A stretch of 62,101 bases of DNA, filler included. It is 3 parts of 3 records of this genome, joined end to end, with 100 filler letters (N's around TTAATTAATTAA, not from the genome) between each part and the next. Parts side by side here need not be neighbours in the genome. Positions count along the whole stretch, not along the records: positions 46,151 to 62,101 come from SRR22947727_1479; 2 more parts are not named here. One strand, written 5' to 3'. The translations under genes were made by a program, and so were the position numbers. The first letter of the stretch is position 1; each line of letters opens with the position of its first letter. Below the pieces are notes generated by a model. It searched no databases, was not told the origin of the DNA, and was given only the letters and a program-made list of their open reading frames with translations. Below, in pieces: positions 26,401-54,038 of the stretch.

Positions 26401-26597
26401 CGACTCCGGAGTCAGTGGCGGTGCTGCCCGGCGCACCCACAACACGGGTGTCCCCGGGGATATCGTCCGTGAGCAGCGCATTGTTGGCAGCTATGTTGCC
26501 CTTGTTCTCGGCAATAATTTCATAAATAAGCTTCCCGCCGGGCGCCACAATGTTCTGAGACGAACGCTGCTCTCCCCTTTGATCTGTCAGCGAGTCA
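23471..26597 (-). CDS. DUF11/Ig-like repeat surface protein with choice-of-anchor-U-like domain and C-terminal sorting signal (5'-truncated)
   Basis: Repeated PG..LTYT..V.N.G and L.W.LG.L motifs; YSITDDGDLDQD..GTLRDP; PVPLPLW-TM-YRRL tail. The frame stays open to the contig end. Confidence 0.88.
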
Positions 26598-26697
26598 NNN
26601 NNNNNNNNNNNNNNNNNNNNNNNNNNNNNNNNNNNNNNNNNTTAATTAATTAANNNNNNNNNNNNNNNNNNNNNNNNNNNNNNNNNNNNNNNNNNNN
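26598..26697. other. Artificial contig spacer N44-TTAATTAATTAA-N44
   Basis: All-frame stop linker; composition and gene content change across it. Confidence 0.98.
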
Positions 26698-26786
26698 TAG
26701 AAGAAGCACAGTGGGACGTGGGAGATACTATAGAGTATTCAGAGGATATTGACGGATCTATTATAATGAAGAAAGTAGTGACTTAA
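26698..26786 (+). CDS. Partial small protein, AbrB-like (EEAQWDVGDTIEYSEDIDGSIIMKKVVT)
   Basis: Hand translation; W..GD.....DGS pattern. Confidence 0.55.
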
Positions 26787-26815
26787 AAAATCCGCGAAAA
26801 ACCGCGTCCAAAATT

Positions 26816-27106
26816 ATGAGTGAAACACCTAAGTTTGAAACCCTAGAAGAATATTGCAACTGGGGGTTTGAGCAACTATCTCAAGCGTTAGTGCAACTCA
26901 CTAATCGCACGACTGCCTTAGAGCAGGCAGTATCTAAGTTTCCCCCGCCTGGTGCGGATATGATTAAGTATAAGATTCCTGAGCGAGAAGATTATAGTAA
27001 TCTGGTAGATTTGTTTGACAATCTATATGACCGTATTCGTAATCTTGAAGATGAGCGAGACCGTCTAAAGACCCGTCTAAATAAAATCGAAGGGATTGAT
27101 CACTAA
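26816..27106 (+). CDS. Hypothetical coiled-coil phage protein
   Basis: 96-aa ORF with heptad pattern. Confidence 0.75.
   Translation: MSETPKFETLEEYCNWGFEQLSQALVQLTNRTTALEQAVSKFPPPGADMIKYKIPEREDYSNLVDLFDNLYDRIRNLEDERDRLKTRLNKIEGIDH
27077..27083 (+). promoter_or_regulatory. Putative T4-like late promoter (CTAAATA)
   Basis: TAAATA core about 30 nt upstream of a structural gene. Confidence 0.6.
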
Positions 27107-47799: not shown

Positions 47800-48504
47800 A
47801 TGAAAGTTATTGCGTTTCAACCACAACACGCCGAATTATACGGCATAGAATGCGCCATATTAATACAAGGTATTAAACTAGGCCTAGAATTAAATGAGAA
47901 TAAAGATACCCATATACATAATGGGAAAGTATGGATGTACAACACCGTTAAAGAATGGCACCGTATTTATCCATTTATGACCGAATCAAAGATTAAACGA
48001 TCGATTGCAAAGCTACAAGCAATGGGCGTAATAGAGGTTGCCCAACTCGATAGGAACAAACTGAACCATACGAATTGGTATACCTTGACTAATCGATTAG
48101 GTCAAATTGAACCAATCGAAGGGTACAAAATGAACCAATCGAATAGCGCAAATTGCACCAATCTAAACAATATAAAACAAGACATTATAAATCAACAATA
48201 TAAAACAAACAATAAGGGGGACGAACGGGAAGGTATTTTTAATGAGGTATGGAAAGCATACGCTACGGTGAGTACGCGACAACCTGGAAGCAAGAAAGAC
48301 GCTAAAAGCAAATTTAAACGGCTTACAAGCGACGAACTTGAGTTAATACGTGTTCACCTACCAAAATATCTTAAAAATCACGTAGCGGCCGCGAAAACGG
48401 ATTATTTGCCCAATTTCACGACGTATTTAAACCAACGACGATACGAAGATGAAAAAATGCCGTATGTTGATACCCAAGATGAAATCGAAAATTGGATGCG
48501 ATGA
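47800..48504 (+). CDS. Phage replication initiator (wHTH N-terminus, lambda O/DnaD-like architecture)
   Basis: HAELYGIECAILI, WMYNTVKEW...PF, TNWY; C-terminal F...W.AY...SKKDA and TYLNQRRYEDE; internal iterons. Confidence 0.8.
   Translation: MKVIAFQPQHAELYGIECAILIQGIKLGLELNENKDTHIHNGKVWMYNTVKEWHRIYPFMTESKIKRSIAKLQAMGVIEVAQLDRNKLNHTNWYTLTNRLGQIEPIEGYKMNQSNSANCTNLNNIKQDIINQQYKTNNKGDEREGIFNEVWKAYATVSTRQPGSKKDAKSKFKRLTSDELELIRVHLPKYLKNHVAAAKTDYLPNFTTYLNQRRYEDEKMPYVDTQDEIENWMR
48057..48215. repeat. Putative replication origin: 18-bp iterons at 23-bp period plus AT-rich tract
   Basis: CAAA(T/A/C)TG(A/C)ACCAATCGAA-like units at 48057, 48080 (degenerate), 48103, 48126 and 48149; AACAATATAAAACAA at 48166 and 48194. 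Confidence 0.75.
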
Positions 48505-49166
48505 ATTACGAAATTAGATCAATAGATTATGAAGATTGCAAAGAGTGGTTTTTAAAAAAACACTATGCTAAAAGAATACCACCCATTGATTTTTGTTTTG
48601 GGTTATATGATAAGGATATATTAGTAGGTATATGCAGTTATGGAACTCCCGTAAGTCATCCATTAAGATCTATATTTACAGATTATAAACTTTACGAATT
48701 AAACAGACTTGTTATAAATGAAAATATGCCAAAAAATACATTATCGTATTTTGTTTCTAGTACATTAAAAAAAATGCCGAATCCATGCGTAGTTATTTCG
48801 TATGCGGATACTTCACATAATCACCACGGATTTATATATCAAGCCACCAATTTTATATATACGGGCTTATCTGCCAAGTTTATGGATTATATGGTTCAAG
48901 GCATGGAGCATTTACATGGGGCTAGTGTTTTCGATATGTCTAGAGGCCAAAAAAATAGGGTACAATGGTTAAAAAATAAATTTGGTGATCGTTTATACAT
49001 GAAAGAGCGACCACGAAAACACCGATATTTTTATTTTATAGGCGATAAAAGAACCAAAAAAAATATGTTAAATATATTGCCATATAACATAGAACCATAT
49101 CCAAAAGGAGAAAATAAGCGTTATGATGCTAGTTATAAGCCTACAACTCAAATTAAATTATTTTGA
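48501..49166 (+). CDS. Mom-family (GNAT-fold) adenine-modification protein, copy 1
   Basis: KKHYAKR, FGL...GICSYG, ELNRL, KNTLSYF, ISYADTSHNHHGFIYQATNFIYTG, KHRYFYF, PYPK. Confidence 0.82.
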   Translation: MNYEIRSIDYEDCKEWFLKKHYAKRIPPIDFCFGLYDKDILVGICSYGTPVSHPLRSIFTDYKLYELNRLVINENMPKNTLSYFVSSTLKKMPNPCVVISYADTSHNHHGFIYQATNFIYTGLSAKFMDYMVQGMEHLHGASVFDMSRGQKNRVQWLKNKFGDRLYMKERPRKHRYFYFIGDKRTKKNMLNILPYNIEPYPKGENKRYDASYKPTTQIKLF

Positions 49167-51861: not shown

Positions 51862-52455
51862 ATGGTGCAAGTTATCGACATTAACAAAATCCAAGGCAAC
51901 CGAGAAAACCCAAGGGTAATTAAGGACGACAAATTTAAAAAGCTTGTTAAATCAATACAAGAGTTCCCCGAAATGCTAAATTTACGGCCAATCGTTGTAA
52001 ATAAAGACATGGTTATCCTTGGTGGGAATATGCGCCACAAGGCCGCGAAGGATGCGGGACTAAAGGAAATACCCATTATTATAGCGGAAAACCTAGACGA
52101 AGCAAAAGAACGAGAATTTATCATTAAAGATAACGTTGGTTTTGGTGAGTGGGACTGGGACGCATTGGCAAACCTTTGGGATATTGAGGAACTCGACGAA
52201 TGGGGGTTAGAACTTCCCGTTACTATGTCAACGGATGAACTAGGCGAAGAGTTTAATTTGCCTGATGGTGATAAAGAACCATTCCAACAAATGACGTTTA
52301 CACTAGCGGACCAACAAGCCGTTGTTATTAAAAATGCAATAGACATAATTAGGGGTACCGAAGAATTTAAATACGTAGAAACATACGCAAACGAAAACGG
52401 CAATGGTAACGCATTGTATCTAATTATTACGCAATGGGTAGAGCAAAGGAAATAA
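51862..52455 (+). CDS. ParB/Srx-like N-terminal domain protein
   Basis: NPRVIKDDKFKKLVKSI, RPIVV, ILGGNMR, FIIKDNVGFGEWD. Confidence 0.88.
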   Translation: MVQVIDINKIQGNRENPRVIKDDKFKKLVKSIQEFPEMLNLRPIVVNKDMVILGGNMRHKAAKDAGLKEIPIIIAENLDEAKEREFIIKDNVGFGEWDWDALANLWDIEELDEWGLELPVTMSTDELGEEFNLPDGDKEPFQQMTFTLADQQAVVIKNAIDIIRGTEEFKYVETYANENGNGNALYLIITQWVEQRK

Positions 52456-53132
52456 TCGTAAAAGTAATACCCGCAAATATTGCGAATGAGTTTGTAAAAA
52501 AACATCACTACTCGGGAAAGGTTGTACCAAATAGTAAATTGCATTTTGGGGCATTTTTAGATAATAGACTGCACGGCGTTATGAGTTATGGAAGTCCTAT
52601 GATGAAATCAAAAGCACTAATTATGGTAGAAAATACGGGGTGGAATGAAATGTTAGAATTAAACCGTATGGCCTTTGATTCGTTTTTGCCTAAAAATAGC
52701 GAAAGCCGATGCATTGCAATTTCGATTAAATTAATTAAAAAGAACGCACCGCATATAAAATGGATATTGTCGTATTCAGATGGTACGCAATGCGGCGATG
52801 GTACAATATACCGAGCAAGTGGGTTTTATTTAACGGATATAAAAAAGAACACGGGAATTATTCAAATGCCTAATGGTGAAATACGCGCTAAAATGACCTT
52901 TACAAAGGGAACACATATTTTAAAACAAAATGGTAAAGCCAATATTCCTAAAGGTGCCAAATATTTAGATGGTTTCCAATTGCGGTACATCTATTTAATA
53001 GATAAGAATTGTAAATTAAACGTGCCAATATTGCCATTTTCAAAAATTAAAGAACTTGGCGCATCTATGTATAAAGGTAAAAAATTGAGCGAGGGGGTCG
53101 AATCGAACGCCGCTTTTAACCTGGATGGCTAA
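52434..53132 (+). CDS. Mom-family (GNAT-fold) adenine-modification protein, copy 2
   Basis: FVKKHHYSGK, HFGAFL..LHGVMSYG, LELNRMAF, PKNSESR, ILSYSDGTQCGDGTIYRASGF, FQLRYIY, MYKG. Confidence 0.85.
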   Translation: MGRAKEIIVKVIPANIANEFVKKHHYSGKVVPNSKLHFGAFLDNRLHGVMSYGSPMMKSKALIMVENTGWNEMLELNRMAFDSFLPKNSESRCIAISIKLIKKNAPHIKWILSYSDGTQCGDGTIYRASGFYLTDIKKNTGIIQMPNGEIRAKMTFTKGTHILKQNGKANIPKGAKYLDGFQLRYIYLIDKNCKLNVPILPFSKIKELGASMYKGKKLSEGVESNAAFNLDG

Positions 53133-53157
53133 TGTGCTACCATTACACTACCCCCGC
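53088..53157 (-). tRNA. Non-canonical tRNA-Gly(TCC)-like gene
   Basis: Minus strand GCGGGGG TA GTGT AATGGTA GCAC A TTAGC CATCCAG GTTAA AAGC GGCG TTCGATT CGACC CCCTCGC T. Acceptor, D and anticodon stems pair; TTCGA T-loop; U73; A at position 33; T-stem 4 bp with a bulge; CCA not encoded. Confidence 0.85.
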
Positions 53158-53167
53158 TTATATTTAA

Positions 53168-53198
53168 CAAAGTTATGAAAAATGTACACATATTCAAA
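53168..53198 (-). promoter_or_regulatory. Bacteroidetes-type promoter TTTG-N19-TAACTTTG driving the tRNA-like gene
   Basis: Exact consensus match on the minus strand, ending 10 nt upstream of tRNA G1. Confidence 0.78.
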
Positions 53199-54038
53199 AA
53201 CAACTTCGACCCCAAAAAAGTCTTACTCCTTTCCGATATCCATTGGGATAATCCCAAGTGCGACCGCGTTTTACTCAAACGCCACTTGGACCAAGCCATG
53301 GAAATGGACGCGAGAATATGTATGAATGGGGATACTCTTTGCCTCATGATGGGCCGCGCAGATCGTAGGGGAAGTAAGAGTGGAATACGCCCCGAGCATA
53401 ACGTAGACCATTATTTCGACGCGGTGGTAAATGACGCAATAGAATGGTTTAGCCCATACGCAAAAAATATCGACGTTATCAGTTACGGCAACCACGAAAC
53501 GGCAATAATCAAGCATCAAGAGATTGACGTAATACAACGCCTCGTTGGTGGGTTGAATCAAAAAAACGGAACGCACATACAAACGGGCGGTTATGGCGGT
53601 TGGATAGTGTACAATTTTAAACGACCTAAAAGCGCGGGTAGTGTTTCGTATAGAATCAAGTATTTTCATGGTAGTGGTGGGGGTGGTCCCGCTTCGCGTG
53701 GTACAATTCAGTTTCACCGAGCAAGTAGCGTTATACAAGGTGCCGATATGGTATGGATGGGACACGTACACGAAGACCACGAATTAACCTACCAGGTAGA
53801 GCGAATGAATCACAACAACAATGTACATTTGAAGGAGGTTTTAATGGTAAGGACGGCAACTTACAAAGAGGAATACGGCGACGAAAAAGACGGATACGGT
53901 GCCAAAGGTTGGATGGTAGAGAGAGGAAGTCCACCCAAACCCCTAGGCGGTCGATGGTTAGTATTAGAACCTATCCGAGAAATAATAAAGGGCCACGAAG
54001 AAATTAAAGTAAAAGCATACACATACCGCGCAAAATGA
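53175..54038 (+). CDS. Calcineurin-like metallophosphoesterase
   Basis: SDIH, NGD, GNHE, HG and GHVH motifs. Confidence 0.9.
   Translation: MKNVHIFKNNFDPKKVLLLSDIHWDNPKCDRVLLKRHLDQAMEMDARICMNGDTLCLMMGRADRRGSKSGIRPEHNVDHYFDAVVNDAIEWFSPYAKNIDVISYGNHETAIIKHQEIDVIQRLVGGLNQKNGTHIQTGGYGGWIVYNFKRPKSAGSVSYRIKYFHGSGGGGPASRGTIQFHRASSVIQGADMVWMGHVHEDHELTYQVERMNHNNNVHLKEVLMVRTATYKEEYGDEKDGYGAKGWMVERGSPPKPLGGRWLVLEPIREIIKGHEEIKVKAYTYRAK

Follow-up and report, generated by a model that had tools for sequence, protein, structure and literature searches.

The Mom protein of bacteriophage Mu moves glycine from Gly-tRNAGly to the N6 of adenine in double-stranded DNA, and a rearrangement on the base then yields N6-carbamoylmethyl-adenine (Silva et al., Nat Commun 2026, PMC13219725). 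According to this paper, residues R111 and S124 of Mu Mom are essential, the enzyme is thought to read the 3' acceptor end of the tRNA, Gly-tRNAGly-dependent modification was demonstrated for Mu Mom and two metagenomic homologs, and a possible cost of tapping the host translation machinery is noted by the authors. This study concerns a Mom-family gene, the product of which is called Mom1, and a tRNA-Gly-like RNA gene at its 3' end, both located in a stretch of 62,101 nucleotides (the window, meaning the whole stretch of DNA that was analysed), in the part derived from record SRR22947727_1479. In an initial annotation made from the sequence alone, the RNA was proposed to be a dedicated glycyl donor for DNA modification, on the premise that Mu Mom uses Gly-tRNAGly; this premise is now published in the work cited above.

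Two other described systems are close to this locus. In Staphylococcus aureus, non-proteogenic tRNAGly species interact poorly with elongation factor Tu (EF-Tu) and are preferred by the transferase FmhB, the discrimination residing in the D and T arms, and this source places the lineage only in staphylococci (PMC7826273). In the ssrA islands of Dehalococcoides, a ParBc gene accompanies a Mom homolog whose first 150 bp enclose a conserved tRNA-Gly-like 'pseudo-tRNA' of 76 bp; the account of the islands, which is older than the Gly-tRNA chemistry, gives no function for it (McMurdie et al. 2011, PMC3146451). A full-text literature search found this to be the only paper noting the co-occurrence of Mom and a tRNA-Gly-like locus; the main text of PMC13219725 and its 2023 preprint mention no phage tRNA, pseudo-tRNA, Dehalococcoides or gene neighbours.

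The data presented below are best explained if the element is a glycine-specific carrier RNA that the phage encodes and that descends from tRNA-Gly(UCC), forming a fixed module with Mom and a gene for a ParB_N-domain protein. We consider it probable that this RNA is a dedicated and most likely non-translational glycyl carrier for Mom, charged by the host glycyl-tRNA synthetase (GlyRS) and kept out of translation. The donor role put forward in the initial annotation thus finds support in the linkage of the RNA to Mom, its covariation, its invariant GlyRS identity set and the published chemistry of Mom.

The tRNA-Gly-like gene and its relatives

The only tRNA called by ARAGORN across the whole window is a tRNA-Gly(tcc) at 53087-53157 on the minus strand. 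The Rfam tRNA model (RF00005) matches 53088-53157 of the same strand with an E-value of 3.8e-6 and a score well above the gathering score of 29, recovering the cloverleaf except that the 5' strand of the T-stem is one position short. Over its final 45 nt (53088-53132), outside the Mom domain, mom runs antisense to the 3' half of the RNA. A minus-strand cloverleaf over the last 45 nt of a Mom-like coding sequence, for which a scan with tRNA finders had been suggested, was therefore detected by both ARAGORN and Rfam, with Pfam identifying the coding sequence.

The acceptor stem of the window copy contains G1-C72, C2-G71, G3-C70 and G4.U69, followed by U73 and C, with no CCA encoded. Its anticodon loop reads C-A-U-C-C-A-G, i.e. 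A33, the anticodon UCC and G38, and is closed by C32/G38, while the T-stem consists of 4 bp and a single bulged A on the 3' strand. The structural description given in the initial annotation, including the GlyRS identity set, is correct for this copy. The canonical elongator arrangement of a 7-nt loop with U33 and an unpaired-type 32/38 combination is thus absent from this copy, and a regular 5-bp T-stem fits neither the window RNA nor the 27 distinct relatives aligned below. Folding of the window RNA as a single sequence was not significant (z -1.37), so the case for the RNA rests on homology and covariation.

In order to compare the element with its relatives, two sets of Mom loci from viral contigs were used. 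Set A comprises the best 80 of 535 viral-contig Mom relatives, with 64-92% identity to the window Mom, and set B the best 80 of 183 viral relatives of the Mom from locus L088, a second clade that is about 30% identical to the window Mom and was chosen without reference to the RNA. At the 3' end of Mom in set A, ARAGORN called a tRNA in 40 of 80 loci (31 Gly and nine with an undetermined two-letter 'anticodon') and missed the other 40. Applied to five long viral records (four are at least 93% complete), the Rfam tRNA model matched only this element, detecting it in two and missing it in three.

The 27 distinct ARAGORN-called sequences from set A were aligned with MAFFT, without fitting to a model (alignment A1), and a covariance model, R1, was built from this alignment. 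A cloverleaf with a 4-bp T-stem and a bulged A is paired in 99.8% of 540 cells of A1, and 15 of the 20 pairs show compensatory double changes, with covariation in all stems. None of 500 shuffles reached the observed pairing, and slid controls gave 37-56%. When a textbook 5-bp T-stem was imposed on A1, two positions paired in 0/27 and 1/27 sequences, whereas the 4-bp T-stem with the bulged A fits 100% of cells, with covariation. RNAalifold independently returned from A1 the bulged T-stem together with a sixth anticodon-stem pair, formed by positions 32 and 38. Two further alignments, A3 and A4, are model-fitted and lean towards structure; the unfitted A1 gives the same result. Random decay of the stems, named in the initial annotation as an outcome that would speak against the proposal, is not what was observed: the stem changes are compensatory, and the idea of a decayed tRNA was rejected, the same RNA being present in 80/80 and 80/80 relatives.

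Conservation was assessed in 57 distinct copies, from the clade of the window and the genome loci described below, and in 52 distinct copies from the second clade. G1-C72, C2-G71, U73-C74, C35, C36 and the bulged A are invariant in 57/57 and 52/52 copies, the RNA ending in G-C-U-C (U73, then C) throughout, and the bulged A is kept even in copies having a 5-bp T-stem. The 3:70 pair is G-C in 51/57 copies. The bacterial GlyRS identity set (G1-C72, C2-G71, U73, C35 and C36, with G3-C70) is therefore present in the element, the determinants, as given in PMC9976931, coinciding with the invariant positions. The expectation that the T-stem bulge, U73 and the identity set would be conserved is accordingly confirmed.

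Other positions are free. Position 33 is A, U or C, so that A33, to which the initial annotation had drawn attention, is a true feature of the window copy and not a conserved one of the family. Anticodon loops of 7 nt (29 copies in the first set, 28 in the second) are about as frequent as loops of 8 nt (27 and 24), and a 7-nt loop with U33 occurs in only 11/57 and 16/52. The loop ends are C32/G38 in 50/57 and 44/52 copies. Among 25 host tRNAs of one isolate, used as a control, U33 was found in 25/25, C32/G38 in 0/25 and U32/A38 in 2/25. U predominates at position 34, where several copies have A or C; 18/57 have lost the D-loop GG, and the T-loop is non-canonical in many. Judged from these patterns, selection appears to keep what the synthetase and a reader of the acceptor end need and to release what the ribosome needs.

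Two kinds of variants were observed at the positions concerned. G3.U70, the main determinant of alanyl-tRNA synthetase, occurs in three distinct copies (L034, L053/L065 and L060/L068/L069) with an otherwise glycine-type acceptor stem, and such copies might be charged with alanine besides or instead of glycine. Some second-clade copies (e.g. L298, L291, L300, L243 and L246) have A or C at position 34, giving ACC or CCC, with C35 and C36 constant. An ACC glycine anticodon is unusual in bacterial decoding.

Linkage of the RNA to Mom and ParB_N genes

The assignment of Mom1 to the Mom family is supported by a match to the Pfam Mom profile with an E-value of 5.9e-52 and 176.7 bits (cut-off 27.1), aligning residues 7-204 with positions 2-202 of the 202 in the profile, and by a match to the PHROG 'Mom-like DNA modification protein' (E 7.9e-49). 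Mom1 is 29% identical to Mu Mom, the only solved relative (8BV8, E 7.4e-19), and in pairwise alignments the equivalents of Mu R111 and S124 are kept as the R of ELNRM and the second S of NSES. Mom1 is presumed to be a Gly-tRNA-dependent N6-adenine DNA glycyl transferase.

The model R1 finds the RNA in the window and in 80/80 loci of set A, always at the 3' end of Mom (E 1e-20 to 8e-10), with 44 copies on the Mom strand and 36 antisense. In set B, the RNA is likewise found at the Mom 3' end in 80/80 loci, 62 of them co-oriented and 18 antisense. Twelve loci from genome contigs, representing very different phyla and mostly metagenome-assembled genomes (MAGs), yielded nine full copies and one partial copy. 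The only cultured carrier found was a prophage of Anaerococcus cruorum ENR1039 (L212, 6721-6795), which has the complete ParB-Mom-RNA module. In this genome, the one isolate carrying the module for which the host comparison was made, the RNA differs from the host tRNA-Gly(UCC) in the anticodon loop, D-loop, T-loop and T-stem, and it ends in an encoded CCA, as do all host tRNA genes there.

The reverse comparison used an RNA-only pattern (anticodon loop, bulged T-arm and 3' end) against viral contigs and gave at least 118 loci. Among the matches listed, 111/118 adjoin a Mom homolog detected by tblastn, many at only 27-38% identity, and four more have a Pfam Mom gene directly upstream, bringing the total to 115/118; in the remaining three loci the RNA lies at most 252 nt from the contig end. 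Since 86 of the 118 stretches were not in forward sets A and B, at least 246 viral loci carry both Mom and the RNA. The enrichment of this fold beside Mom homologs predicted in the initial annotation is thus evident in both directions (80/80 and 80/80 forward, 115/118 reverse).

For phylogenetic analysis with FastTree, Mom proteins were truncated to 225 residues, two rows below 170 aa were excluded, and merging of duplicates reduced 215 rows to 157. On the resulting tree of 157 rows, RNA presence changes about 3 times and orientation 36 times, of which at least 22 are forced by well-supported branches. On a FastTree tree of the element itself, which has only 72 columns and low resolution, orientation changes about 6 times. 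Because orientation changes so much less often on the element tree than on the Mom tree, the two orientations resemble interchangeable cassettes that are swapped by recombination, one always being retained beside Mom.

It was also observed that in antisense loci of both clades the Mom C-terminus ends alike (…L-S-E/D-G/E-V-E-S-N…N-L-D/E; 53087-53132 in the window and 8733-8777 in L088), since this stretch of mom is the complementary strand of the conserved RNA 3' half; this protein tail is dictated by the RNA gene.

A ParB_N homolog lies directly upstream of Mom in 76/76 set A loci with enough sequence, and some ParB_N match was found in 80/80 loci of set A and 80/80 of set B, so the ParB_N gene is a conserved third member of the module. 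In one locus (L187), ParB_N is fused to an N6/N4 DNA methylase. Judging from such gene arrangements, ParB_N may be a DNA-targeting partner of DNA-modifying enzymes.

Coordinates of these genes and of other features mentioned below are collected in Table 1.

Table 1. Coordinates of the features discussed in the text, in positions of the window
Feature	Position	Strand	Basis and remarks
tRNA-Gly(UCC)-like RNA gene	53087..53157	minus	ARAGORN; Rfam tRNA 38.8 bits; own model R1 89.4 bits; covariation in 27 and in 57 distinct relatives
TAACTTTG, match to Bacteroidota sigma-A -7 box TAnnTTTG	53168..53175	minus	presumed promoter of the antisense RNA gene
Mom1, Mom-family GNAT, 232 aa	52434..53132	plus	Pfam PF25680; PHROG 1384; last 15 codons antisense to the RNA
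ParB_N-domain gene	51862..52455	plus	Pfam ParB_N E 9.3e-11; overlaps Mom start by 22 nt
Second Mom-family gene	48492..49166	plus	3.3 kb upstream; Pfam Mom E 1.1e-36; 30% identity to Mom1 over 115 aa
Exonuclease-like gene, 287 aa	53175..54038		
Open reading frame, 3637 aa	35185..46098	plus	after gp6-like baseplate gene; YHYH domain; weak baseplate-wedge and beta-propeller matches

The motif TAnnTTTG is the -7 box of Bacteroidota sigma-A promoters, located at -12 to -5 (PMC9723704). In the window the match, TAACTTTG, stops 10 nt short of G1, and it overlaps with the start codon of the plus-strand open reading frame that follows. In the clade of the window, the motif was found 4-13 nt upstream in 26/27 distinct antisense upstream sequences and in 9/26 co-oriented ones; in the second clade the figures are 8/15 and 1/37, respectively, the chance expectation being 0.023 per 40-nt stretch. 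Antisense copies, that of the window included, are therefore presumed from the sequence to have their own promoter box of Bacteroidota type. A scan of 52800-53500 for sigma-70 promoters and terminators gave no more matches than shuffles and no terminator. Runs of at least five T downstream (22/24 and 15/15 antisense, 0/30 and 0/37 co-oriented copies in the two clades) were rejected as terminators, because they are the antisense of the conserved K-G-K-K codons of Mom. The sequencing runs containing the window DNA are marine and comprise metagenomes as well as three RNA libraries.

In its right part the window is of phage origin, as indicated by baseplate genes (gp25 and gp6-like) together with terminase, sigma-factor and HNH genes. 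The phage has two Mom paralogs and one carrier-like RNA. The exonuclease-like gene that follows Mom1 was rejected as a module member, homologs being present in only 5/80 and 3/80 loci of sets A and B. The very long open reading frame in Table 1 presumably encodes a tail-fibre or baseplate-associated protein of very large size. A step in composition at about 26500-27100 separates a left part with 52-63% G+C, which includes a 1024-aa protein with DUF11 repeats, from the right part with 36-44% G+C, from the phage baseplate genes onward; it could be a prophage junction or an assembly chimera.

Proposed glycyl-carrier role of the RNA and alternatives

A number of observations weigh against a dedicated glycyl carrier. 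Mu Mom accepts all three E. coli tRNAGly isoacceptors, but not Gly-tRNAAla (PMC13219725), so that a private donor is not chemically required. Among 11 Mom loci of cultured phages, which belong to other clades (Mu, JD024, PAN70, pAEv1818, Q69, a Porphyromonas phage, BC-6, DSL-LC03, Melnitz, PX29 and Psychrobacter Y8A), none has the RNA within 2.5-4 kb, the only match of R1 being an ordinary tRNA-Trp of Melnitz, 1 kb upstream, and a blastn search with the 71-nt element against cultured phages gave no match. Psychrobacter phage Y8A, with 48.7% identity, has the ParB-Mom pair without the RNA, and the same is true of two prophage loci (ParB-Mom) in Bacilli MAGs, even when searched with filters off. 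The second Mom paralog of the window and its four viral relatives also have no tRNA-like element beside them. In Mom1 itself, Mu R151, which is among the surrounding essential residues, aligns with Q. Model R1 also gives a canonical host tRNA-Gly(UCC) 58 bits, so the RNA family is distinguished by its aligned features and not by score, and one of the loop-end variants, U32/A38, which is seen in a minority of copies, occurs in normal host tRNAs as well. When contigs of four runs were compared with the window, one 320-nt RNA-library contig touched 53079-53111 and was rejected as evidence of a transcript: its flanks are unlike those of the window, so it represents the conserved T-arm of a relative and is uninformative on transcription, ends and strand. 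Finally, U34 is retained in most copies, yet it is absent from the GlyRS determinants as given in PMC9976931; G18G19 are normal in 39/57 copies, and many have a normal T-loop; and GGA makes up 20-22% of glycine codons in the phage genes compared with 8% in the left part, which may be host DNA, a difference that makes a decoding benefit conceivable.

These last points, together with the fact that ARAGORN and Rfam call the element a tRNA and that most copies retain the UCC anticodon, are what would be expected of an ordinary decoding tRNA-Gly(UCC), aiding the reading of GGA in an AT-richer phage and standing beside mom only by inherited gene order. We regard this as unlikely in view of the anticodon arm, since a 7-nt loop with U33 is a minority state in both clades and the rule in host tRNAs, about half of the copies have 8-nt loops, C32/G38 prevails, and position 34 drifts to A or C with C35/C36 constant. 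An invariant bulge in the T-stem, the failure of ARAGORN in half of set A and of Rfam in three of the five long records, and a linkage to Mom that has persisted through 22 or more changes of orientation and some 70% divergence of the protein argue in the same direction. A remodelled anticodon loop would also suit a role in counter-defence at the tRNA level, independent of Mom, in which the RNA serves as a replacement or decoy against an anticodon nuclease or a GNAT toxin that acetylates Gly-tRNA. Phage tRNAs with loop changes evading anticodon nucleases are described, and toxins of the TacT type read U73 and G71 of tRNAGly (PMC9976931). Such a role appears distinctly improbable, as it leaves both the near-absolute two-way linkage to Mom and the conserved T-stem bulge unexplained, and a replacement tRNA must still decode, against which the loop features argue.

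Another alternative is that the RNA, bound to Mom or to ParB_N, acts as a regulator or scaffold and donates no glycine, for example as an uncharged mimic that keeps Mom inactive until late infection, or through antisense timing of its expression at the mom 3' end. The element is indeed antisense to that end in 36/80 and 18/80 loci, mom of Mu is annotated as tightly controlled by Com, and the acceptor end thought to be read by Mom is invariant. We nevertheless find this quite unlikely, because the full GlyRS set is invariant, including C35/C36 distant from the acceptor end, which charging needs and Mom binding does not; the Firmicute copy encodes CCA, and the co-oriented copies (44/80 and 62/80) are unable to pair as antisense. 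It is hardly credible that the conserved feature is one of the DNA or of a cis-acting RNA, such as an integration site derived from a host tRNA gene, a recombination hotspot at the module boundary or a terminator of mom. The site is a boundary beyond which genes vary, as seen from the rarity of the exonuclease gene, and the orientation types resemble swapped cassettes, with 6 changes on the element tree as against 36 on the Mom tree. However, the element lies inside the phage gene array and not at its end, its conserved letters follow the sense strand of the tRNA in either facing, and antisense copies have a promoter box of their own. The idea of an attP site or a copy of a host gene, in particular, was rejected on the array position, the mismatch with the host's own tRNA-Gly in the single isolate that allows the comparison, and the conservation with covariation of the non-host bulge and C32/G38.

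The mechanism that we favour, with the RNA as a glycyl carrier for Mom, would begin with transcription of the window RNA from its own promoter, antisense to the mom end; in other phages the RNA is co-oriented with mom and would be cut out of its transcript. RNase P, 3' processing and CCA addition would trim the RNA, which the host GlyRS would glycylate through G1-C72, C2-G71, G3-C70, U73, C35 and C36. Mom would then move the glycyl group from the RNA to N6 of adenine in double-stranded phage DNA, where it would rearrange to N6-carbamoylmethyl-adenine, shielding the DNA from restriction. With its bulged T-stem, a loop (7 or 8 nt) closed by C32/G38 and, in many copies, no U33, the RNA would be a poor substrate for EF-Tu and the ribosome, and as a result the glycyl pool would not be drained by translation, nor translation by Mom. 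From the sequence patterns we infer that GlyRS charges the RNA, that EF-Tu and the ribosome pass it over and that Mom prefers it. The carrier RNA is an accessory and not a chemical necessity, because Mu Mom takes all isoacceptors and a few close relatives are without the RNA. The more canonical copies may conceivably retain some part in decoding, because U34 is mostly kept and GGA is commoner in the phage genes than in the left part of the window.

Significance and comparison with known systems

A more general proposal, which is advanced tentatively and with less confidence than the carrier role itself, is that ParB_N, Mom and the carrier RNA may form a self-contained DNA-aminoacylation module distributed across phages and islands of many phyla. 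The RNA could then represent a new class of virus-encoded aminoacyl carriers orthogonal to translation, charged by the host GlyRS, hidden from EF-Tu and the ribosome by the bulge and the closed loop, and selected by Mom via the bulged A, while variants with G3.U70 or a changed position 34 may carry other amino acids and give rise to undescribed adenine modifications. As it appears from these data, a large and mostly marine set of phages avoids the cost to translation by means of a private, translation-proof glycine carrier beside Mom. If true, this would be the first virus-encoded tRNA serving DNA chemistry and not decoding, and a second, independent case of the staphylococcal "non-proteogenic tRNAGly" principle; it would also explain the tRNA-like locus of the Dehalococcoides islands, unexplained since 2011. 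In practice, the RNA is a marker for active momylation systems of which tRNA finders miss about half, and it may offer a compact orthogonal pair of aminoacyl-RNA and transferase for the engineering of DNA modification.

The element shares with canonical tRNA-Gly(UCC) the cloverleaf, the GlyRS identity set and the UCC anticodon of the window RNA. As a family, it differs in a T-stem of 4 bp (5 in some copies) with an invariant bulged A, in C32/G38 replacing the usual C32/A38, in U33 not being conserved, in 8-nt loops in about half of the copies, and in the loss of G18G19 and of the T-loop in a third.

The closest precedent for the proposed carrier is provided by the S. aureus tRNAs NP1-3, which serve FmhB, FemA and FemB: they are glycine tRNAs charged by the normal GlyRS, make weak contact with EF-Tu and the ribosome, and supply a non-ribosomal transferase. 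Fem transferases have a GNAT-like fold. The T-stem of these staphylococcal tRNAs differs by base-pair identity, without a bulge, and their anticodon loops have 7 nt. They are cellular and their acceptor is peptidoglycan, whereas the window RNA is viral and its proposed acceptor is DNA, and they are without a gene-level linkage to the enzyme of the kind seen at Mom loci. By analogy, it is proposed that the window RNA works like the staphylococcal non-proteogenic tRNAGly, without being filed as a member of that lineage; at the level of the enzymes, FemX is grouped with GNAT enzymes in Fig. 5 of PMC13219725.

Mu Mom belongs, like Mom1, to the PF25680 family, and equivalents of R111 and S124 are common to both. 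No tRNA is encoded by Mu, whose Mom accepts any host isoacceptor and whose mom gene is under the control of Com, whereas Mom1-type loci, found in the viral contigs counted above, have ParB_N and their own deformed tRNA-Gly-like RNA. With the ssrA islands of Dehalococcoides, the window shares the whole trio of a ParB-domain gene, a Mom homolog and a tRNA-Gly-like locus overlapping mom. In these integrative islands of Chloroflexota, the RNA is located in the 5' end of mom, while at the loci described here it is found at the 3' end of mom, in either orientation, and in phages.

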